Below, piece by piece: positions 12,722-58,747 of a stretch of DNA of 64,000 bases. The stretch is from Mustelus asterias (lineage: Eukaryota), in NCBI RefSeq assembly GCF_964213995.1, contig NC_135815.1, positions 22,816,001 to 22,880,000 on the forward strand, written 5' to 3'. Numbering within the stretch: the stretch's first letter is position 1; each line of letters starts with the position of its first letter. A program made the translations under genes and the position numbers. The notes beneath the pieces are model-generated. The model searched no databases, had not been told where the DNA came from, and was given only the letters and a program-made list of their open reading frames with translations.

Positions 12722-13048
12722 CATAGAATCATTGAATCCCTACAGTGCAGAAGGAGGCCATTCAGCCCATCGAGTCTGCACTGACCATAATCCCACCCAG
12801 GCCCATCCCCATAACCCCGTGCATTTGCCCTAGCTTGTACTCCTGACACTAAGGGGCAATTTAGCATGGCCAATCCACCTAACCCGTATATCTTTGGACT
12901 GTGGGAGGAAACCAGAGCACCCGGAGGAAACCCACGCAGACACAGGGAGAACGTGCAAACTCCACACAGACAGTGACCCAAGCCGGGAATCGATCCTGGG
13001 TCCCTGGCGCTGTGAGGCAGCAGTGCTAACCACTGTGCCACATGGCAG
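12722..13048 (-). mobile_element. HE1-like V-SINE, type A tail
   Basis: Full-length reverse copy. Confidence 0.85.
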
Positions 13049-14285: not shown

Positions 14286-15474
14286 ATCTCCTTCTTGAAT
14301 CAAGACTGTATAAAGCTCTTAGTGTGTACTCTGCTGTAATGGCTGGATGTGCAGGGGATTGACTGTGAGATCTAGCACTGTATTAAACTGTTAGCAAGGG
14401 CTGTGAATAATAATTGAATCCCTCATTCCTTATTGATAACTCCAGATGAATAATTGTACCAGGCAAAATTCCTTTCCTGTCAAATCTTGAAATCAATACA
14501 GTTTTTTTTAGATCTGCTATCACATTTGCTGTCTGACATTCATGAGTAACCAGTTTGAAGACGTGACTGTTTCTGCCCGTTTTGAACAGTGCCATAAATA
14601 TTTGCCTTTTTGAGAAATTTATATGACATATAGGTGAGTACATGGACAGTGATGATGCACTATCACTTTGTCTGTCTCACACTGCGCTATTTTAGATGCC
14701 AGTTTAAATTTCACAGGACGGAATCTTGTGCTCCCTCCCCTTGCCCCGTGAAGAGTTTGGGGGTGAGGGAGGGGGGGAGGGCATTTAATTGAACAGGAGT
14801 GTAACTGGTGGGGAACCCATCACCTTCTCACTCCACTGCCAATTGAGGCCCTTAAGTAGGCAACGAGTGTCCACTTAAGGGCTTCATCCCACCATCTACC
14901 CCACCCCCACCCCACCCCTGCAACCCCCGTATTAGCCCAGCAGCAAGCAGGCAACTCAGCAAGTAGAGGGCACGACAAGCAAACACAGGCTCCCAGGGGG
15001 CCTCCCTCAGTCAGAGGTGCTCAGTGCCAGATTGAGGTATCTGGCATTGAGAAGGGGGCAGGGTCAGCTGAAAACCACCTGGTGGTGCTGCCGAGTACAG
15101 AAGAGCTCCCAGCCTCTGATAAGCAGATAGATCTCTGAGAGACCCTGGGGGCCCTTGATCCTGGGGGAAGGGCCATTGCTGGATTGTTAAATGCCTGACT
15201 CCACAAGAGTCAGCGAGCCTCCTTGAAAAGAGATGCCGTGGGGAGTCTCACTGGCTCTGTAGCCTCCATCGTCTACACAGGATTCCAACCATACCATCAC
15301 TAAGGCATTTGGAGGCCATTTGGCCCATCAAGTCCATCTCTGTGGAGCAATCCATTCAGTCCCATTCCCCTTGCTCTATCCCTATTGCCCTGGAAGTCTC
15401 AATCCAACAGGGAACTACCCAAATTCCTTCTGAAATCATTGTTCCACCACGCTCACAGTAACTTCATTGCAGTG

Positions 15475-15790
15475 TGATGCGCTACTCAAACACGAGGCCT
15501 GAAGCTCGGTAAATGAAAGGCTTTTATTTACTGTAATGAAGCAGCCAGTAATTATATACACTATCCCAGACTGAAGGGGTCCCGGCCAGAGCAGGGACTC
15601 TTATACCTCTCCCAGGAGGCGGAGCCCGACTGGGATGTGCCACAACACTACAGTACGAAGGTGTAACAACCCCACCCTAACCCCAACAGCAACAATAGCA
15701 CAACCCAACAGTAACATATGTACATCCTTGTAGTACTGGCCAGCCCCTGGCTCAGTACTATCCAGTGGGAACCAACGATGGTTCACCACA
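15475..15790 (-). repeat. 3' LTR (316 bp)
   Basis: Differs from 19900-20214 by one 1-bp indel (cccc/ccc) and one C/T substitution. Confidence 0.97.
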
Positions 15791-15807
15791 TTCACCCCTC
15801 CTTTGAG
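15791..15807 (-). promoter_or_regulatory. Polypurine tract
   Basis: Minus strand reads ctcaaaggaggggtgaa immediately before the TG of the 3' LTR. Confidence 0.85.
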
Positions 15808-16208
15808 AACAAAGGCCGGCGGGGTACAAAAAAACAGAATAAAGTGTCAGCAGTCTATAAGTTCAGACGGTCAGGGGGACCGCACCGTCGTTGTGACCTC
15901 CTCAATACCGGCGGTGACACCGGAGTAGGCACTTGCGGTGGCGTTCTCCCCAAGACAGCGTCCAGCTGTTCTTCCACGGACTCACAGGCCGGTTGACCCT
16001 GAGGTGACGGTAGTCCATGGGATCCTGACACGCCCTGCAGTGGCGACCATCTTCTGGGCTCACGCAAGCTGTACATGGGAGTAAAATGGTTAAGCAATGG
16101 TCCCGATGCTGCCCGTGCCGTGTCCGGGGAAGAAACAAGAGTTAAAGGGTTTGTAACAGGGGGTATGGGAGCGACAGGGGTTGCTACGTCCCCTACTGGC
16201 GCCAGGTC

Positions 16209-19200
16209 TCAGATCGAGACCGTATCCTCTCGCCCGTCAGGGTATGCCACATAGGCATACTGAGGGTTGGCGTGGAGGAGATGGACCTGTTCGACCAACG
16301 GGTCGGACTTGCGGGCCCTTACATGTCGTCGCAGGAGGACGGGTCCTGAGTACGTCAACCAAGACGGTAATGAGGTCCCCGAGGAAGACTTCCGAGGGAA
16401 TGAGAACATCCTCTCGTGGGGAGTAGCATTGGTTGCCGTACACAGGAGAGAGCGAATAGAATGGAGCGCATCAGGGAGCACCTCTTGCCAACGGGAGACT
16501 GGAAGACCTTTTGACTTCAACGCCAGTAAGACAGCCTTCCAGACTGTAGCATTCTCACGTTCCACCTGTCCGTTACCCCTAGGGTTGTAGCTCGTGGTCC
16601 TACTAGAGGCAATCCCGTATGAGAGCAGGAATTGCCTCAAGTCATCGCTCATGAACGACGAGCCCCTGTCGCTATGGATGTAGCCGGGGTACCCGAACAG
16701 GGTAAAAAGATCACGGAATGCCTTGATAACCGTGGCAGCGGATGTATCAGAGCAGGGAACAACAAAAGGGAACCGAGAGTACTCGTCAATGATATTGAGG
16801 AAGTACACATTCCGATCTGTTGAGGGAAGGGGGCCCTTAAAATCGACACTCAGTCTTTCGAAGGGACGAGTGGCCTTGACTAAATGTGCCCGGTCAGGTC
16901 GGTAAAAGTGCGGTTTGCATTCCGCGCAAACCCGACAGCTTCTTGTTACTGACCTGACGTCCTCCACTGAGTAAGGCAGGTTGCGGGCTTTTATAAAGTG
17001 GTAGAGCCGAGTGACCCCAGGATGGCATAGGTCATTATGGAGGGCCTGCAAACGGTCCTCCTGTATACTAGCGCATGTTCCACGCGAGAGGGCATCCAAG
17101 GGCTCATTGAGTTTCCCTGGACGGTACATGATATCGTAGTTATAGGTGGAGAGTTCAATTCTCCACCGCAAGATCTTGTCATTCTTGATCTTGCCCCTCT
17201 GCGTGTTGTTAAACATGAACGCCATGGACCGCTGGTCCGTGATCAGGGTGAACCGTTTTCCCGCCAAGTAATGGCGCCAGTGCCTGACGGCCTCCACAAT
17301 GGCCTGGGCCTCCTTTTCCACCGCTGAATGCCGAATTTCGGGGCCTTGGAGGGTGCGGGAAAAAAATGCGACGGGCCTGCCCGCCTGGTTAAGTGTGGCG
17401 GCCAGGGCGAAATCAGATGCATCGCTCTCCACCTGAAAGGGGATGGACTTGTCTACAGCGTGCATCGTAGCTTTCGCGATGTCGGCTTTCAATTTATCGA
17501 AGGCCAATCGGGCCTCTGGCGTTAGGGGAAAAGTAGTGGACTTAATGAGCGGACGGGCTTTGTCCGCGTAGTTGGGAACCCACTGCGCATAATAAGAGAA
17601 GAAGCCTAAGCATCTTCTCAGTGCTTTTGCACTAGCAGGCAAGGGAAGTTCAGAAAGGGGGCGCATACGGTCTGGATCAGGGCCAATGACCCCGTTTTCC
17701 ACCACGTATCTGAGGATGGCTAAACGGCGCGTACGAAACACACACTTCTCCCTGTTGTAGGTCAGGTTCAGGCGAGATGCAGTGCGTAGGAAGTTCAGGA
17801 GATTCGTGTCGTGGTCCTGCTGGTCATGGCCGCAGATGGTGACATTATCCAGGTACGGGAAGGTAGCCCGCAGCCCGTTCTGGTCCACCATTCGGTCCAT
17901 AGCACGCTGGAAGACCGAGACCCCATTGGTGACACCAAAGGGAACCCTGAGAAAGTGATACAAGCAACCATCCGCCTCAAAAGCCGTGTATTGTTGGTCC
18001 TCTGGGCGAATGGGGAGTTGGTGGTAGGCAGACTTGAGGTCTATGGTGGAGAACACCCGGTACTGCGCAATCTGATTGACCATATCAGATATGCGCGGGA
18101 GAGGATACGCATCCAGCTGCGTATATCGGTTAATGGTCTGACTGTAGTCAATGACCATCCGGGGTTTGTTCCCGCTCTTGACCACCATGACCTGCGCTCT
18201 CCACGGACTAGCGCTGGGTTGTATGATCCTTTCTTTGAGGAGCCGCTGAACCTCAGATCTAATGAAGATCCGATCCTCAGCGCTGTAACGCCTACTTTTA
18301 GTCGCGATGGGCTTGCAGCCTGGCACAAGATTCTGGAACAAGGAGGGTGTGGTGATCTTCAGCGTCGAGAGGCTGCAGGCGGGGCGCATTGGGCAATTTG
18401 GAGGCTGCTGCTGTTTTCCCATTGCCAGTGAAGGGAGTGGCCCACCGTACTGTAGGATTACACTCCTCAAGTGGACCATGAAGTTTAGTCCGAGAAGTAT
18501 TGGTACGCAAAGATACGGCAACACGAGGAGCTTGAAACGCTCGTAAACTGTGCCTTGCACCTTCAAAGTTACCACGCAACTCCCTAGCACAGCAACAGAC
18601 CGGGACCTTGATGCCATAGAGGTTGGCTGTTTGGCAGGTTGAATCTGGAGTCCACACCGCTTCACAGTGTCTGGGTGGATAAAGCTCTCAGTGCTCCCGC
18701 TGTCAAACAGACAATAAATCACGTGGTCATTTACCTGTATATTCATCATACATTGGTCAAGTCTATGAGGCTTGGCCTGGTCCAGGATGATTGACGCCAC
18801 CGTTGGTTCATGAGCGCCACTGCAGGCAGCTGAAATCGATGAGGAGGACCCCTGCTGGTCGTTCGTGGTCAGTGTCGACCAACATGGCCGCTCCCATGAG
18901 TCGCTCGTGGGTGAGGGCGCCAAACTCAGCAACCCCTGGTGGTCACACACCTCCGACTCCGTCGACCGTAATGGCGTTGTCCTGGCCTCGCACGTGGACG
19001 AACCCCTCGATGACTTCGACGACGAAGACCCGAGCTCTGAAGAATCGCAGGCCGCACTGCCATTCCTGGGTTTAGATCGGCACACTTTCGAATAGTGCCC
19101 TTTCTTACCGCATGCGGTGCACAACACAGCTTTAGCGGGACACCGTTGCCGAGTATGCTTCGCTCCCCCACAGAAATAGCACCGCGGGCCACCCGGGGCT

Positions 19201-19844
19201 GCTGCCGTCGTCTGGCCCAAGTGTGAGCACGCCATTACGCAGCATTTCGAACCCGAGGGACGAGGAGTGATTGGCAACTGCTCCTGCCACGTTGTCTCCA
19301 CATGGTCCTCCGGATATAATACTAAGCTTTTGGAGGCCGTCTCGAGCATCTCCGCTAGCTCGATGGCCTGGGTAAGATCGAGGTTATCCTTCTCCAACAG
19401 CTTAAGTCGAATGTACGACGATCCGACCCCCGCCACAAACGCATCTCGGGCGAGGTCGTTCATGCTCTGCTCAGCCGACACAGCTTTGCAGTCACAGCCC
19501 CTGGCTAGCTGTAGGAGCTCGTTCGCATATTCCTCCATCGTTTCGCCAGACTGCCGTCGTCGAGTGGCTAGGAGGTAACGAGCGTGTATTTCATTGGGTG
19601 GTTTGATATAACGCTTCTTCAGAAGCTCGAGGGCCTTAGTATAATCGGTGGCCGCACGGATCGCGAGGTAGACAGTGTCGCTTACCCTCGCATGGAGGAC
19701 CCGGAGTCTGTCATCATCTGTGGTGACCGCTGCGGAGGCTGCCAGGTAGTCTTCGAAACACTTCAGCCAGTGGTCGAAGGTGTCAGAAGTGCCCACCGCA
19801 CGTGGATCTAGTGTAAGGCGTTCCGGCTTCAGGATTTGCTCCAT
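16209..19844 (-). CDS. Gag-Pol polyprotein, 1211 aa to a premature TGA; the frame stays open to 15855
   Basis: Two CCHC knuckles (CYFCGGAKHTRQRC, CTACGKKGHYSKVC), protease LFDSGS, RT (IDLKSAYHQ, PFG, YLDN), RNase H (ESDASD, EKEA, TD) and integrase (H..HPG..C..C, SVDFKGP, HSDRG, GNGQVER). Confidence 0.95.
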   Translation of the reverse strand: MEQILKPERLTLDPRAVGTSDTFDHWLKCFEDYLAASAAVTTDDDRLRVLHARVSDTVYLAIRAATDYTKALELLKKRYIKPPNEIHARYLLATRRRQSGETMEEYANELLQLARGCDCKAVSAEQSMNDLARDAFVAGVGSSYIRLKLLEKDNLDLTQAIELAEMLETASKSLVLYPEDHVETTWQEQLPITPRPSGSKCCVMACSHLGQTTAAAPGGPRCYFCGGAKHTRQRCPAKAVLCTACGKKGHYSKVCRSKPRNGSAACDSSELGSSSSKSSRGSSTCEARTTPLRSTESEVCDHQGLLSLAPSPTSDSWERPCWSTLTTNDQQGSSSSISAACSGAHEPTVASIILDQAKPHRLDQCMMNIQVNDHVIYCLFDSGSTESFIHPDTVKRCGLQIQPAKQPTSMASRSRSVAVLGSCVVTLKVQGTVYERFKLLVLPYLCVPILLGLNFMVHLRSVILQYGGPLPSLAMGKQQQPPNCPMRPACSLSTLKITTPSLFQNLVPGCKPIATKSRRYSAEDRIFIRSEVQRLLKERIIQPSASPWRAQVMVVKSGNKPRMVIDYSQTINRYTQLDAYPLPRISDMVNQIAQYRVFSTIDLKSAYHQLPIRPEDQQYTAFEADGCLYHFLRVPFGVTNGVSVFQRAMDRMVDQNGLRATFPYLDNVTICGHDQQDHDTNLLNFLRTASRLNLTYNREKCVFRTRRLAILRYVVENGVIGPDPDRMRPLSELPLPASAKALRRCLGFFSYYAQWVPNYADKARPLIKSTTFPLTPEARLAFDKLKADIAKATMHAVDKSIPFQVESDASDFALAATLNQAGRPVAFFSRTLQGPEIRHSAVEKEAQAIVEAVRHWRHYLAGKRFTLITDQRSMAFMFNNTQRGKIKNDKILRWRIELSTYNYDIMYRPGKLNEPLDALSRGTCASIQEDRLQALHNDLCHPGVTRLYHFIKARNLPYSVEDVRSVTRSCRVCAECKPHFYRPDRAHLVKATRPFERLSVDFKGPLPSTDRNVYFLNIIDEYSRFPFVVPCSDTSAATVIKAFRDLFTLFGYPGYIHSDRGSSFMSDDLRQFLLSYGIASSRTTSYNPRGNGQVERENATVWKAVLLALKSKGLPVSRWQEVLPDALHSIRSLLCTATNATPHERMFSFPRKSSSGTSLPSWLTYSGPVLLRRHVRARKSDPLVEQVHLLHANPQYAYVAYPDGREDTVSI

Positions 19845-19899
19845 ACTCTCTCTTTTTTTTTCTCTTCTTCGACGAGAGTTTAACGACAGTAAATAAAAT

Positions 19900-20214
19900 T
19901 GATGCGCTACTCAAACACGAGGCCTGAAGCTCGGTAAATGAAAGGCTTTTATTTACTGTAATGAAGCAGCCAGTAATTATATACACTATCCCAGACTGAA
20001 GGGGTCCCGGCCAGAGCAGGGACTCTTATACCTCTCCCAGGAGGCGGAGCCCGACTGGGATGTGCCACAACACTACAGTACGAAGGTGTAACAACCCCAC
20101 CCTAACCCAACAGCAACAATAGCACAACCCAACAGTAACATATGTACATCTTTGTAGTACTGGCCAGCCCCTGGCTCAGTACTATCCAGTGGGAACCAAC
20201 GATGGTTCACCACA
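19900..20214 (-). repeat. 5' LTR (315 bp)
   Basis: TG...CA ends. The minus strand has TATAAG (20030-20025), an Inr-like TCAGTC (19999-19994), a second TATATAA (19983-19977) and AATAAA (19953-19948). Confidence 0.97.
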
Positions 20215-20247
20215 CAGTGTTAATGTAAGCCTACCTGTGACACTGAT

Positions 20248-20581
20248 CATAGAATCAAAGAATCGTACAGTGCAGAAGGAGGCCATTCGGCCCATCGAGT
20301 CTGCACTGACCACAATCCCACCCAGGCCCTATCCCCATAACCCCATGCATTTACCCTCGCTGGTCCCCGTGACACTAAGGGGCAATTTAGCATGGCTAAT
20401 TCACCTAACCTGCATATTTTGTTCTCAGACTGTGGGATGAAACTGGAGAACCCGAAGGAAACCCACGCAGACATGGGGAGAATGTGCAAACTCCACACCG
20501 ACAGTGACCCAAGCTGGGAATCGAACCCAGGTCCCTGGCGCTGTGAGGCAGCAGTGCTAACCACTGTGCCACCGTGCCACC
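20248..20581 (-). mobile_element. HE1-like V-SINE, type A tail
   Basis: Full-length reverse copy. Confidence 0.85.
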
Positions 20582-33939: not shown

Positions 33940-34288
33940 TGCCACTCTGCAATAGAATCGGTGGGGGAGGGAGTGAGGGGCCAACTGGGGCTGTCCATCG
34001 GGGGAGGGGGTCGGGACTGGCCTTCGGGGGAAGGGGAGGGGTTCGGGACTCTCGGGAAATGGGTAGGTTGGGACTGGCCATTGGGGAGAGGGGTCGGGAC
34101 TGGCTATTGGGGGGTGGGGGAGAGGTCACGGCTGGCCCTCGGGGGAAGGGGAGGGGGTCAGGACTCTCGGGACGGGGGGGTTGGGACTGGCCATTGGGGA
34201 GGGGGGTCGGGACTGGCTACTGAGGGGTGGGAGAGGGGTAGGGGCCAGCCATCGGGGGAGGGGAAGGGGATCAGGACTGGCCATCGGG
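33940..34288. repeat. G-rich imperfect tandem repeat next to the assembly gap
   Basis: Recurrent ggggtcgggactggccat(c/t)ggggga units. Confidence 0.7.
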
Positions 34289-34836: not shown

Positions 34837-34938
34837 TCGGCGCACTCTGATTATACTGCTCTGACTGAGTAATCGGCGCACTCTGATTATACTGCTCTGA
34901 CTGAGTAATCGGCGCACTCTGATTATACTGCTCTGACT
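34837..34938. repeat. 36-bp tandem repeat, about 3 copies
   Basis: Unit tcggcgcactctgattatactgctctgactgagtaa. Confidence 0.9.
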
Positions 34939-35029
34939 GCAGAATTCCCCAAACCTGATCCTCTCCCTGCATTACTCCCTGATATCCCCGTCCATAGTAC
35001 CACACATATCCCCAAGTGAGTCGCTTGTG

Positions 35030-36025
35030 CAGCTCCTCTCCCCAGGCACTGTTACTCTCCCCGGGTGCTGCTCCTCTCCCGGGGCGCTGCTCCTCTCCCC
35101 TGGCACTGTTCCTCTCCCCTGGTGTTGTTCCTCTCCCCTGGTGTTGTTCCTCTCCCCTGGTGTTGTTCCTCGCTCCTGGCGTCGCTCCTCTCCCCAGACA
35201 CTGTTCCTCTCCCCAGGCACTGGTCCTCTCCCCTGGCATTGTTCCTCTCCCCGGCACTGTTCCTCTCCCCTGGCACTATTCCTCTCCCCTGGCATTGTTG
35301 CTCTCCCCTGGTGTTGTTCCTCTCTCCTGGCGTTGTTCCTCTCCCCTGGCACTGTTCCTCTCCTTTGGCACTGTTCCTCTCCCCTGGCACTGTTCCTCTC
35401 CCCTGGCGTTGTTCCTCTCCCCTGGCGTTGTTCCTCTCCCCTGGCGTTGTTCCTCTCCCCTGGCGTTGTTCCTCTCCCCTGGCGTTGTTCCTCTCCCCTG
35501 GCACTGTTCCTTTCCCTGGGCACTGTTCCTCTCCCTTGGCACTGTTCCTCTCCCCTGGCACTGTTTCTCTCCCCTGGCATTGTTCCTCTCCCTGGGCACT
35601 GTTCCTCTCCCCTGGCACTGTTTCTCTCCCCTGGCATTGTTCCTCTCCCTGGGCACTGTTCCTCTCCCCTGACGTTGTTCCTCTCCCCTGGCACTGTTCC
35701 TCTCCCTGGGCACTGTTCCTCTCCCCTGGCGTTGTTCCTCTCCCCTGGCGTTGTTCCTCTCCCTGGGCACTGTTCCTCTCCCCTGGCGTTGTTCCTCTCC
35801 CCTGGCACTGTTCCTCTCCCCTGGCACTATTTCTCTCCCCTGGCGCTGTTCCTCTCCCCTGGTGTTGTTCCTCTCCCCTGGTGTTGTTCCTCTCCCCTGG
35901 CGTTGTTCCTCTCCCCGGCACTGTTCCTCTCCCCTAGCGTTGTTCTTCTCCCCTGGCGTTGTTCCTCTCCCCTGGCGTGTTCCTCTCCCCGGGCACTGTT
36001 CCTCTCCCCTGGCATTGTTCCTCTG
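35030..36025. repeat. 19-bp minisatellite, about 50 copies
   Basis: Unit ttcctctcccctggc(act/gtt)g with strong strand purine asymmetry. It accounts for all the long ORFs in this interval. Confidence 0.95.
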
Positions 36026-36693
36026 CCCTCCTCTCACGGTGCTGCCTCAGTTAAAGATCTCATTCACATTATTGTAGTTCGAACAACACATTGTGGAGGC
36101 TCAGCACAGATCATATGCTGCAATTCTGATTGGAGCTTAAAATGTTGACTTAGGTGCGAGTTCTATTAAGTCCGGCACGCGGAAAGAAGTTGACAAATTC
36201 CCAAGTCAGCTGTTACAGCAAAAACTCTTATCGCAATAGCTGCTTTCCTATCTTAAGGTGGAAACGTGCAAATGTTTAATTACAGTGCAGACACCTGCCT
36301 TAATTGATAAGACTGATATTTTAAGGATTACATCCCAAACCAATCATTCTTGACTTTGGCTTACTTTATTGGTTCAAAATATTTTCCCCAGGCAGAGTTT
36401 CAATGTTTGAGTACATAATATGTACTCACTGAGTAATGTAAAGAGCTGTAAAAAAATGAGATATCCACAACACTGTAAATGCTGACAATGGTCTGTGTAC
36501 AATTAGCCACTTCCCATGTAGAGGCTAATCATCATCTGATGATTAAACAGAAGGCAAGACCAAAGGTCAGACCTGCCAATCTTGTTTTCATGTCATATCC
36601 AGTTGGACCATAATTGGACAGACTCCTGGCCTCATATGTACTTCAATATACCTGACATATACACATTTATACAGCACAGTTTCCATTTACTGA

Positions 36694-55620: not shown

Positions 55621-55922
55621 AAGTTATATGAATATTGATTAATATTTTAGAACTTAGTTTCCTTTCTGAAGGTGATGTTTTACACTGGGGTACTATGCCA
55701 AAGGCACTTGTAATTTCTGAAGCCTCGCAGGAGTGAATATTAATGAACACAGCTAACTTTAGTTCTTCCTAATTTTGGAATGCAGGGTTCAATTGTGCAA
55801 ATGTTAAGAGCTCCATTTATTTAATGGAGTGTGCTTCGGGAAGGTGCATTTCAGTGGGCAGGTTTTCCATATGACCTGTGATCTGGTCACTAACAACATA
55901 TTATTTGCACTTTTTCCTCCAG

Positions 55923-56750
55923 GATCCTGATGTCATAAACACGTCTTTGCCTGTAGAATACGGGCCTCCAGCAGAAGAAGAAGGAAATGTTCCGATGCGC
56001 CCAGATGACCCTGACGGATTGGCGCCCCTGTTAGTATCACCAGCACAAGAAGCAGAGAGTGAAGGCGCTCCCACTGATCCCTCCCCGGCACCCGAGCGTC
56101 CAACCAGCCTCTGCCTAGGTGAACACCGGGTCAAATTTGGCCCAAAAGATTCTGCCGTTGTACATACTGGAGGGCCGGCTGAGGAGGGCTCTCACGTCAA
56201 CAAGACATACTCACAAATAAACAACTCTTCTGCTTTACCGCAAGGCAGAGGCTCCCGGAAAAAGCCCACCAACCTCTGGAACCCGACGTACGGGTCTTGG
56301 TTCACAGAAAAGCCGATGGTGCAGAACAGCAACACTTTGACTGACAACAAACCAGCGGAAAGGGAGGATTCTGGTTTCCATGCCAGCGGCAGTTCTTCTG
56401 CCACCATCCCAACTTCCAGACCGCAGGCCTCTGCTGTTGTACTAGAACCTTCTTCCCTCCTCGCCAATACGTTGGATGTGCCTCTTTTCCGGCTGCAGCA
56501 TTTTCCTTGTGGGAATGTGAGTTATGCATTCCAGCAACAACAACAACAACAGCAACAACAGCAGCAGCAGCTGCAGGGTCTGCCTCTGGAAGCAACCTCT
56601 GCTTGTGTTTCCTGTAAGGAAGATTACAACTCACATGTCAGTAAGGGCTTACCTGTCCAGCAGGACCCACGTGTTCACCCTGTTGCCAATATACCCACTT
56701 GGGACTCAGGACTCTCTCTAGCGGAGGATGTAAATGTTACTATACTGTAA
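55923..56750 (+). CDS. ALK: ALK last coding exon (human exon 29 equivalent, C-terminal tail)
   Basis: Polypyrimidine tract and cag acceptor, then DPDVINTSLPVEYGP...KPTNLWNPTYGSWFTEKP...VPLFRLQHFPCGNV...GLPLEA to TAA at 56748-56750. These tail motifs match ALK rather than LTK. Confidence 0.96.
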   Translation, partial: DPDVINTSLPVEYGPPAEEEGNVPMRPDDPDGLAPLLVSPAQEAESEGAPTDPSPAPERPTSLCLGEHRVKFGPKDSAVVHTGGPAEEGSHVNKTYSQINNSSALPQGRGSRKKPTNLWNPTYGSWFTEKPMVQNSNTLTDNKPAEREDSGFHASGSSSATIPTSRPQASAVVLEPSSLLANTLDVPLFRLQHFPCGNVSYAFQQQQQQQQQQQQQLQGLPLEATSACVSCKEDYNSHVSKGLPVQQDPRVHPVANIPTWDSGLSLAEDVNVTIL

Positions 56751-57034: not shown

Positions 57035-58538
57035 CATAGAAACCAGAAGCAGGAGGAGGCCATTCGGCCCTTCGAGCCGGCTCCACCATTCATTTTGATC
57101 ATGGCTCATCATCGAATTCAATATCCTGACCCCGCCTTCCCCCCATATCCCGCGATCCCTTTAGCCCCTAGAGCTATCTCTAATTTCTTCTTGAAATCAG
57201 ACAACGTTTTGGCCTCAACTACTTTCTGTGGTAGTGAATTCCACACATTCACCACCCTCTGGGTGAAGAAATTTCTCCTCACCTCAGTTCTAAAAGGTTT
57301 ACCCCTTATCCTCAAACTATGACCCCTATTCTGGACTTCCCCACCATTGGGAATATTCTTTCTGTATCCACCCTGTCAAACCCTGATAGAATTTTATACG
57401 TTTCTTTGACATCCCTCTCACTCTTCTAAACTCCAGTGAATATAATTTTAACTAATTTAGTCTCTCCTCATATGACAGACGTGCCATCACAGGAATCAGC
57501 CTGGTAAACCTTTGCTGTACTCTCTCTATAACAAGGACATCCTTCCTCAGATAAGGACACCAAAACTGCGCACAATACTCCAGGTGTGGGCTCACCAATG
57601 CCCTATACAATTGCAACAAAACATCCCTATCCCTATACTCAAATCCTCTCACTGTGAAGGCCAACATACCATTTGCCTTCTTTACTGCCTGCTGTACCTC
57701 CATACTTACTTTCAGCGAATGACACACAAGGACTCCAAGGTCTCGTTGAGTATCCACCTCTCTCAATTTACACCCATTCAAGTAATAATCTGTCTTCCTA
57801 TTATTGCTACCAAGGCAGATAACCTCACATTTATCCACATTATACTGTATCTGCCATGCAGATGCCCACACACTCAGCCTGTCCAAATCACACTGAAGCA
57901 TCTTTGCATCCTCCTCACAACTCACCCTCCCACCCAACTTTGTATCATCTGCAAATTTGGAGATAATACATTCAGTTCCTTCTTCCAAATCATTAATATA
58001 TAATGTGAACAGTTGGGGTCCTAGCACAGATCCCTGCGGAACTCCACTAGTCACTGACTGCCAATCTGAAAAAGACCTTTTTCTGCCAACTCTTTGCTTC
58101 CTATCTGTTAACCAGCTTTCAGTCCATCTCAAGACATTATCTGCAATCCCATATGCTTTAACTTTACATTGTAGTGTGTCTTGCGAGGCCTTGTTGAAAG
58201 CCTTTTGAAAGTCGAGATAAACCACATCCACTGGTTCTCCTAAGTCAACTCTACTAGTTACTTCCTCAAAAAATTCCAATAGATTCATCAAGCATGATTT
58301 CCCTTCTGTAAATCCATGCTGACTTTGTCTGATTATACCACAGCCTTCCAAATGCCGAGTTATGAAATCCTTGGCAATGGACTCTAGCAACTTCCCCAGT
58401 ACCGACGTTAGGCTCACTAGTCTATAGTTCCTTGTTTTCTCTCTACCTCCCTTTTTGAATAGTGGGTTTATGTTTGCTACCCTCCAATCTGTAGGAACCA
58501 TTCCAGAGTCCAAAGAATTTTGGAAAATAATCACCAAT
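57035..58538 (-). mobile_element. CR1 LINE 3' portion with a 361-codon open RT frame
   Basis: ORF 57452-58537 has QHGF, VYLDFQKAF, GVPQGSVLGP and KFADDTKL; the CR1 tail lies at about 57035-57110. Confidence 0.92.
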
Positions 58539-58747
58539 GGATTACAGTAACTTTTGAACTGAAATAGCGTTTTTGAGTGAAGGATCTACAAAAGCCACTG
58601 TGCAGAATTCTCCACTGGAATTATCTTTTGCCAAATTCTGCAGTGGTCTTTTAATTACCATGTCCCTTTTCTCACCAGCACACCCCACGCACTCCTGAAG
58701 AGGGAAGTGATTGGTTTTGAAAACTGAGGAGAAGTACAAATCTATTC

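Follow-up and report, generated by a model that had tools for sequence, protein, structure and literature searches.

How does a Gypsy retrotransposon begin reverse transcription when no tRNA primer site follows its 5' LTR? This question is raised by an element in the window, by which we mean the whole stretch of 64,000 nt that was analysed from contig NC_135815.1 of Mustelus asterias (host genome 3.68 Gb). The element lies on the minus strand and is young, its two LTRs differing at 2 of 316 columns. Its TG...CA LTRs, target-site duplication (TSD), polypurine tract (PPT) and domain order identify it as a Ty3/Gypsy LTR retrotransposon. Two CCHC-type knuckles, seen in the translation, precede protease, reverse transcriptase, RNase H and integrase, found with Pfam; this Gag-PR-RT-RNase H-IN order is the one that Ty3/Gypsy requires, and the nearest solved structure to the reverse transcriptase is that of Ty3. 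The window copy is broken in its integrase tail by a stop at 16211-16209, behind which the same frame is open for a further 117 codons. We take the two CCHC knuckles and the 5-bp TSD to be Mag-like. The features, in element order, are as follows.

20215..20219, minus strand: upstream TSD CACTG, matching the downstream CACTG
19900..20214, minus strand: 5' LTR, 315 nt, TG...CA, from LTR comparison
20025..20030, minus strand: TATA box (TATAAG from 20030); sister junctions mostly have TATAA 30-34 nt before the initiator (Inr)
19995..19999, minus strand: initiator-like motif TCAGT, with a predicted start at A 19997; one sister-family fossil arm ends here
19977..19983, minus strand: second TATATAA (starting at 19983), present only in the window's own family
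19947..19959, minus strand: LTR segment ACAGTAAATAAAA, predicted from complementarity to be the 3' end of a self-primer, with AATAAA at 19953-19948
19899..19946, minus strand: 48-nt loop made up of the remainder of R, U5 and the single spacer base A, beginning with a conserved GCC; from the primer position, the predicted template of minus strong-stop DNA
19886..19898, minus strand: primer-binding site (PBS) position TTTTATTTACTGT, without TGG
16209..19844, minus strand: single gag-pol frame from ATG to a premature stop (translation, Pfam)
15855..16208, minus strand: open frame behind the stop, a proline-rich integrase tail with no Pfam family and no chromodomain
15791..15804, minus strand: PPT AAAGGAGGGGTGAA, before the 3' LTR
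15475..15790, minus strand: 3' LTR, 316 nt, from LTR comparison, with a copy of the segment at 15534-15522
15470..15474, minus strand: downstream TSD CACTG, matching the upstream CACTG

The window also holds a short interspersed repeat in many copies (e.g. 208-400, 12846-13038 and 20377-20569), one of them just upstream of the element; this repeat resembles the shark SINE HE1. A long 19-nt tandem array occupies 34912-36148 and a G-rich imperfect array 33975-34285, and the open frames at both places are spurious because of these arrays. Other open frames lie at 55875-56750 (plus strand, 291 codons) and 57452-58585 (minus strand, 377 codons).

On the minus strand, the 5' LTR ends in GCGCATCA, followed by A (19899) and then by TTTTATTTACTGT (19898-19886). 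Read in reverse complement, these 13 nt match ACAGTAAATAAAA (19959-19947) exactly; the two arms are separated by 48 nt. An earlier reading of this DNA, made from the letters alone (the sequence-only reading), had reported this match between the PBS position and the AATAAA segment of the LTR, and re-deriving the coordinates gave identical values. A 13-nt match arose in 0 of 300 LTR shuffles and at 0 of 1360 internal start points, and the element's 3' flank, taken as a control, is complementary to the LTR over just 4 nt. The 3' end of the segment adjoins U5 and points into it. The segment in the 3' LTR (15534-15522) is equally complementary to the PBS position, and a long-range pairing between these two is also possible. 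The hairpin had been described as able to form only at the 5' LTR; this is correct for the local hairpin, but it overlooked the 3' LTR copy as a possible partner. Both 13-mers are kept in all 30 of the best copies fetched, including the window's own, although these were picked by similarity, are 94-100% alike and show only that the pairing is the state of the family.

Just upstream of the segment, TGCTTCAT (19968-19961) could pair with ATGGAGCA (19844-19837) at the start codon, an outer helix that could possibly tie priming to translation. Sister families have TGCTCCA where this outer helix sits, and it is weaker in the close subfamily described below.

We compared the PBS position with host tRNA 3' ends, using a partial set of 34 distinct genes with 10 anticodons. 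The best match within this set was 9/18, without TGG, and the longest run anchored at the PBS was 6 nt. By comparison, the PBS of a control Gypsy family from the same genome matches tRNA-Thr(AGT) at 17/18, and the sequence after its LTR pairs with that LTR over at most 7 nt. The control came from 20 RNase H matches fetched as outgroups, all of which proved to be one tRNA-Thr-primed family. This family (L221-L240) is abundant, has frames of up to 1996 codons and carries its tRNA-Thr(AGT) PBS 4 nt after the LTR. Within this partial tRNA set, the earlier claim that the window element has no tRNA PBS is borne out.

A search of the host genome with the junction region returned 3362 candidates. To investigate whether the two arms change together, a check that had been proposed for this element, we gathered a close subfamily with a pattern in which the fifth base of the LTR segment is altered (461 matches, 30 loci read). 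C stands at this base in 29 of the 30 loci, and each of these 29 has the corresponding G in its PBS; 27 of these are exact over all 13 nt, a T-A pair being replaced by a C-G pair. The swap appears to be one ancestral double change. Uncompensated changes were limited to one A variant among the 30 read loci and the single match of a separate pattern, the compensated and uncompensated figures together covering 31 fetched loci.

The same holds further out. Sister families, whose Gag identity is 51-58%, contributed 51 distinct junctions, of which 43 are paired at 12-13 of the 13 positions and 48 at no fewer than 10; a further locus lacked a junction. The three that fail are L258, L138 and L249, and in L138 other sequence replaces the LTR. 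Among 11 representatives, hand-picked from the families of this genome, 97.9% of cells are paired and none is a G-U pair, with two-sided changes at 7 of the 13 pairs and one-sided changes at none. Pairing as high as this was reached by 0 of 500 shuffles, while slid controls gave 42-52%. One of the two-sided changes, in L135, falls inside the hexamer and turns AATAAA into ATTAAA. The two sides thus change together in the close subfamily and the sister families, as well as in the distant families to which we now turn.

A metagenome scan for relatives left 80 loci. Of the 20 with both LTRs (about 9 families), 17 pair over 11-19 nt, while their 3' flanks pair over 6 nt or less; loss of complementarity in related families was an outcome that the sequence-only reading had named as counting against its proposal. 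The helix starts 1 nt after the LTR's CA in 15 of the 17, the other two having a changed base there, and its outer end varies, giving the range of 11 to 19 nt. L045, L071 and L110 fail this strict test, although L110 pairs 11/11 at a junction 3 nt further on. We also scored 33 loci chosen for having sequence upstream of gag: 19 pair 11/11, 7 pair 10/11 and 7 pair less. Of these low scorers, L065 pairs 12 nt in the both-LTR test and L035 looks mis-registered. G-U pairs fill only 2 of 286 cells in the 26 distant loci that pair 10-11 of 11. Across the distant loci the inner end of the helix is fixed (CA, one spacer base, mostly TTT facing AAA, then mostly GCC or ACC), while its outer end and its sequence vary. 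The poly(A) hexamer (AATAAA or ATTAAA) is missing from the helix in about 6 of 18 distant families, and two of these, L037 and L103, have AATAAA in the loop instead. The loop, or distance to the partner, is 33-58 nt in the families examined.

Identity to the window element over RT-RNase H is 46-88% across the 23 group rows of our tree, which separates them from 2 rows of the tRNA-primed family with support of 100/100; this tree has one outgroup family and cannot name the clade. Named homologues come from elasmobranchs (the nearest being in sharks and rays), Trichinella, Trichuris, Xenia, Actinostola and Styela. No chromodomain was found in the window element (Pfam), in 20 scanned relatives or among the 120 matches listed, and a search of the host's own genome for a chromovirus outgroup returned only weak SH3_Tf2-1 matches. 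With its two CCHC-type knuckles and 5-bp TSD (CACTG), the element is not sushi-like, as had been stated. A pattern scan of IMG/VR gave 47 matches, of which 0 were confirmed. Two further observations concern the distant loci. L103, L107 and L108 form a more distant subgroup with the junction GTTCA, A, TTAAAC, in which L103 pairs 11/11 with its own LTR. L059, L099, L109, L072, L082, L095 and L110 carry polypyrimidine runs ending in YAG in the LTR, resembling 3' splice acceptors, 25-60 nt upstream of the paired segment.

Where the RNA starts determines what kind of primer the segment could provide. Most sister junctions keep TATAA and, 30-34 nt later, a TCAGT-type Inr that precedes the segment's 3' end by about 50 nt. 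This conserved pair predicts a start at 19997 and a primer of about 51 nt, in agreement with the sequence-only reading, which had preferred a start near 19997 for the better spacing of its TATA and Inr; all of its positions (19983, 20030 and Inr A 19997) were as stated. It had also considered that the second TATATAA, 24 nt upstream of the segment, would allow a Tf1-like start. The position is right, but 0 of the 51 sister-family junctions have a TATAA after the Inr. Finally, a start at 19997 had been said to require internal cleavage. A cut would indeed be needed, but this is no extra burden, as the accessible text on Tf1 describes a single RNase H cut there too (PMC7175516).

Folded from the Inr, the helix has a predicted probability of 0.95-0.99 in 6 of 7 copies at both lengths tried. 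The seventh is the window copy, which reaches 0.12 with 20 nt after the PBS, where another fold is preferred, and 0.99 with 60 nt. Folding from the segment gives 0.87-0.99 in 7 of 7 copies. In the predicted folds, the helix is extended inwards with a bulge, and further out there is pairing with the leader; Tf1/sushi elements have a three-duplex 'pretzel' around the primer helix.

A second kind of evidence comes from insertions in which the PBS does not lead into the normal leader but continues as the complement of the LTR, seen initially in L277. Screening for these overruns with patterns gave 20 matches in the window's family, in which ordinary junction 22-mers number 1667; sister families gave 18 and 16. 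Removal of 3 duplicates left 51 overrun loci, which were classed by script. Nineteen are palindromes with a 5-bp TSD (17 exact and 2 with one mismatch), laid out as the whole LTR, A, the PBS and then an inverted R-U3 to the first base of the LTR; two of them, L355 and L356, have their flank in common. In another 20 the arm reaches the LTR start with no matching TSD seen at the other end, 4 have arms continuing into the PPT, and 8 were flagged as stopping early; among these, inspection by eye showed L341 to be a further palindrome flanked by a TSD and the arm of L329 to extend to the start of the LTR.

The two U3 ends and the TSD point to integrase acting on a product of reverse transcription. 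The overrun junction needs a plus strand that has read through U5 into the PBS and is then extended on the LTR segment in exact register, and this register therefore marks the PBS position as a working primer site. In Tf1, about half of the cDNA is described as retaining a single-stranded PBS at its 3' end (PMC11042837, in its accessible part), which would be the substrate needed for overruns. The palindromes thus appear to be fossils of reverse transcriptase joining the PBS and the LTR segment. They show pairing during reverse transcription, not the identity of the priming molecule.

The arms of some palindromes are not identical. In L324 they differ at 28 sites, 21 of which are polymorphic among 53 ordinary LTRs (baseline 7.7%), and in L314, L316 and L323 the differences fall at the same places; a second template was therefore sometimes used. 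At least these four palindromes seem to combine arms of different template origin, and this includes the part upstream of the Inr. L333, with the TSD AACAG, has a 53-nt inverted arm that breaks off at the Inr and resumes, stuttering, in the 3' UTR, with 2-3 nt of microhomology. A primer ending at the cap would leave such a trace, although this is a single case that could also reflect a later deletion, and 0 of the 20 overrun matches in the window's family have an arm stopping at the Inr.

Related structures were also seen. In L342 (G000:C817:150476) the PBS overruns by a few bases and rejoins the normal leader, and its PBS allele differs from its own LTR. L343 (G000:C1442:44976) overruns through almost the whole inverted LTR before the normal leader and contains two different PBS alleles. 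The alleles of these two loci suggest two templates. Head-to-head LTR junctions a few hundred bases apart (L282/L283 at G000:C1:44819275-44819808, and C3:62340310 and 62340625) are probably other mis-jump or self-integration products.

The pairing, the covariation, the fixed register and the palindromes are directly visible in these genomes, while the start site, the cut, the enzyme and the LTR copy that primes are inferred. The primer role is strongly supported by the covariation, the fixed inner end, the near absence of G-U pairs and the fold-back insertions, and we regard self-priming as very probable, taking together a primer from the 5' copy, from the 3' copy or from a Tf1-like start. Probably, the 5' copy primes after one RNase H cut behind AAUAAAA, and the primer is about 51 nt long. 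Transcription would begin at the Inr (19997), placing the segment at nt 39-51 of the RNA, from where it would bridge the 48-nt loop and pair with the PBS. A single cut by the element's own RNase H, immediately behind ...AAUAAAA where the conserved AAA/RCC border lies, would release a 3' end that is extended over the spacer A, U5 and what remains of R and then jumps to the 3' R. When the plus strand is made later, the primer would in turn be copied into the PBS, and the strict Watson-Crick pairing and lack of G-U pairs may be explained by this copying. If so, the covariation would be partly templated rather than due to selection alone. A plus strand that overruns or mis-jumps onto an LTR segment would give a palindrome that has U3 at both ends. 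Where the helix contains the hexamer, concealment of the 5' AAUAAA may come as an added advantage. One helix had been proposed both to silence the 5' poly(A) signal and to supply the primer; the latter fits the sequence evidence well, but silencing, though possible, is not general, given the families without a hexamer. Several points count against priming from the 5' copy: the shorter transcript of the window copy prefers another fold, no overrun arm in the window's family stops at the Inr, a 51-nt primer offers no evident reason for the plus strand to stop at 13 nt, and both the arms from different templates and the 4/51 arms into the PPT would also fit priming from the 3' LTR.

In that alternative, the 3' segment of the same or a co-packaged RNA would pair with the PBS, the tail behind AAUAAAA would be cut off, and the genome would prime with its own 3' end, the primer being trimmed by RNase H once the first jump has taken place. 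It would remove the long-primer problem and has an equally complementary segment to draw on, and the at least four palindromes with different-template arms and the 4 of 51 overrun arms that enter the PPT and 3' UTR show that a second 3' LTR can be joined at the register. However, a plus strand mis-jumping onto a second RNA would yield the same products, the local partner is only 33-58 nt away and should fold first, L333 ends at the Inr, and the literature, in its accessible text, offered no precedent. We consider it unlikely. Quite unlikely is the classic geometry of Tf1, with a start at or just before the segment (19959) and the first 11-13 nt of the RNA as primer, as described for Tf1 itself (PMC7175516, accessible part). 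The near TATATAA of the window's family would suit it, folding from the segment gives the helix in every copy, and Tf elements are reported to use alternative starts (PMC5341516, likewise). Yet the near TATA is absent in 51/51 sister junctions, most of which keep the TATAA and Inr about 50 nt upstream, and the helix is 16-19 nt long in several distant families. A distance of 24 nt is also short for the spacing from TATA to start.

Two explanations would do without a self-primer altogether. The helix might solely hide the 5' poly(A) signal while priming takes another route. AATAAA or ATTAAA does lie in the helix in this genome's families and in about 12 of the 18 distant ones, but the others pair without a hexamer or, as in L037 and L103, hold it in the loop, and hiding a signal calls neither for a start one base after the LTR nor for the absence of G-U pairs. 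As it also provides no primer and leaves the palindromes unexplained, we find this very improbable. That a host tRNA, a tRNA fragment or another small RNA primes, the LTR match being incidental, is hardly credible. The tRNA comparison covered only the 34 genes and 10 anticodons, and half-tRNA priming is described for some Copia lineages (PMC6317226, accessible part), but the best match found falls far below that of the control family, the longest run anchored at the PBS is only 6 nt, and a host RNA is hard to fit to a PBS that differs by family in step with each LTR.

How does the preferred reading, self-priming from the 5' copy, compare with known systems? The Tf1 primer is described as the RNA's first 11 bases, with the RNase H cut between 11 and 12 (PMC7175516), and Tf1/sushi as a chromovirus sublineage with its self-primer at the mRNA 5' end (PMC10085805, PMC4600332). 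As in Tf1 and Tf2 of Schizosaccharomyces pombe, Tj1 and other Tf1/sushi elements, the window group has no tRNA PBS but a post-LTR PBS complementary to its own LTR, the primer would be released by a single RNase H cut, and in Tf1/sushi the PBS is likewise copied to the cDNA 3' end (PMC7175516, PMC4600332, PMC10085805, PMC11042837, in their accessible parts). Unlike Tf1/sushi, however, the group has no chromodomain, has two CCHC-type knuckles and has hosts that include elasmobranchs, nematodes, cnidarians and a tunicate. Its paired segment likely lies 39-51 nt inside the RNA rather than at nt 1-11 and usually holds the poly(A) signal, and its primer, unlike that of Tf1, would have a 38-nt unpaired 5' part. 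The window element would work like Tf1, yet is no member of Tf1/sushi.

Self-priming has also been predicted from PBS-LTR complementarity in the Tcn1 chromoviruses and in the plant Copia lineage TAR, according to the accessible text of one paper (PMC6317226). TAR, a Ty1/copia lineage, places self-priming outside the chromoviruses on the same kind of evidence as here. Unlike TAR and the chromovirus clade Tcn1, the window group consists of animal Gypsy elements with integrase after RNase H. Other unconventional priming sites are described for Skipper and bivalve TRIMs (PMC5006619, PMC6934838), and motifs of animal Gypsy LTRs have been described (PMC3601003), again as far as the accessible text goes. 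Mollusc and annelid surveys listing non-chromovirus Gypsy clades do not contain the words PBS or tRNA in their main text, in the parts available (PMC6238403, PMC8556966). The searchable literature, which excludes subscription papers and Repbase, gave no description of priming in this clade, and nothing related to the palindromic insertions turned up in a look-up for them. Some Repbase entries are reportedly titled 'self-primed Gypsy', so a prior mention is possible. The element resembles Mag A/B/C, Cigr-1 and MolGy in its compact single frame and absent chromodomain. Its size presumably fits Cigr-1 of Ciona, which we take as a lead only for the clade name. In HIV-1, AAUAAA is held in a 5' RNA helix, the poly(A) hairpin, of which both arms lie in the LTR, and a tRNA primes. 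Here, by contrast, the PBS forms one of the arms, and several families do without the hexamer.

Self-priming has been demonstrated for Tf1 only and is regarded as characteristic of the Tf1/sushi chromoviruses; plant Copia supplies a predicted case. We lean towards the view that a large animal-wide Gypsy clade outside the chromoviruses self-primes in a manner unlike Tf1, with a primer that ends in an inner segment of R, usually the poly(A) signal. As part of this view, the primer would come from a capped fragment of roughly 50 nt or from the genome RNA's 3' end, the helix may mute 5' polyadenylation, and errors would give the palindromic two-U3 insertions. The palindromic insertions recording the pairing are new here; they provide in-genome evidence for it that needs no bench assay, and offer a simple computational test for any suspected self-priming element. 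If this view is true, a widespread animal Gypsy group without a chromodomain would be another lineage of tRNA-independent priming. PBS-based LTR finders would miss or mislabel such elements, and control through tRNA fragments that target the PBS would not reach them.
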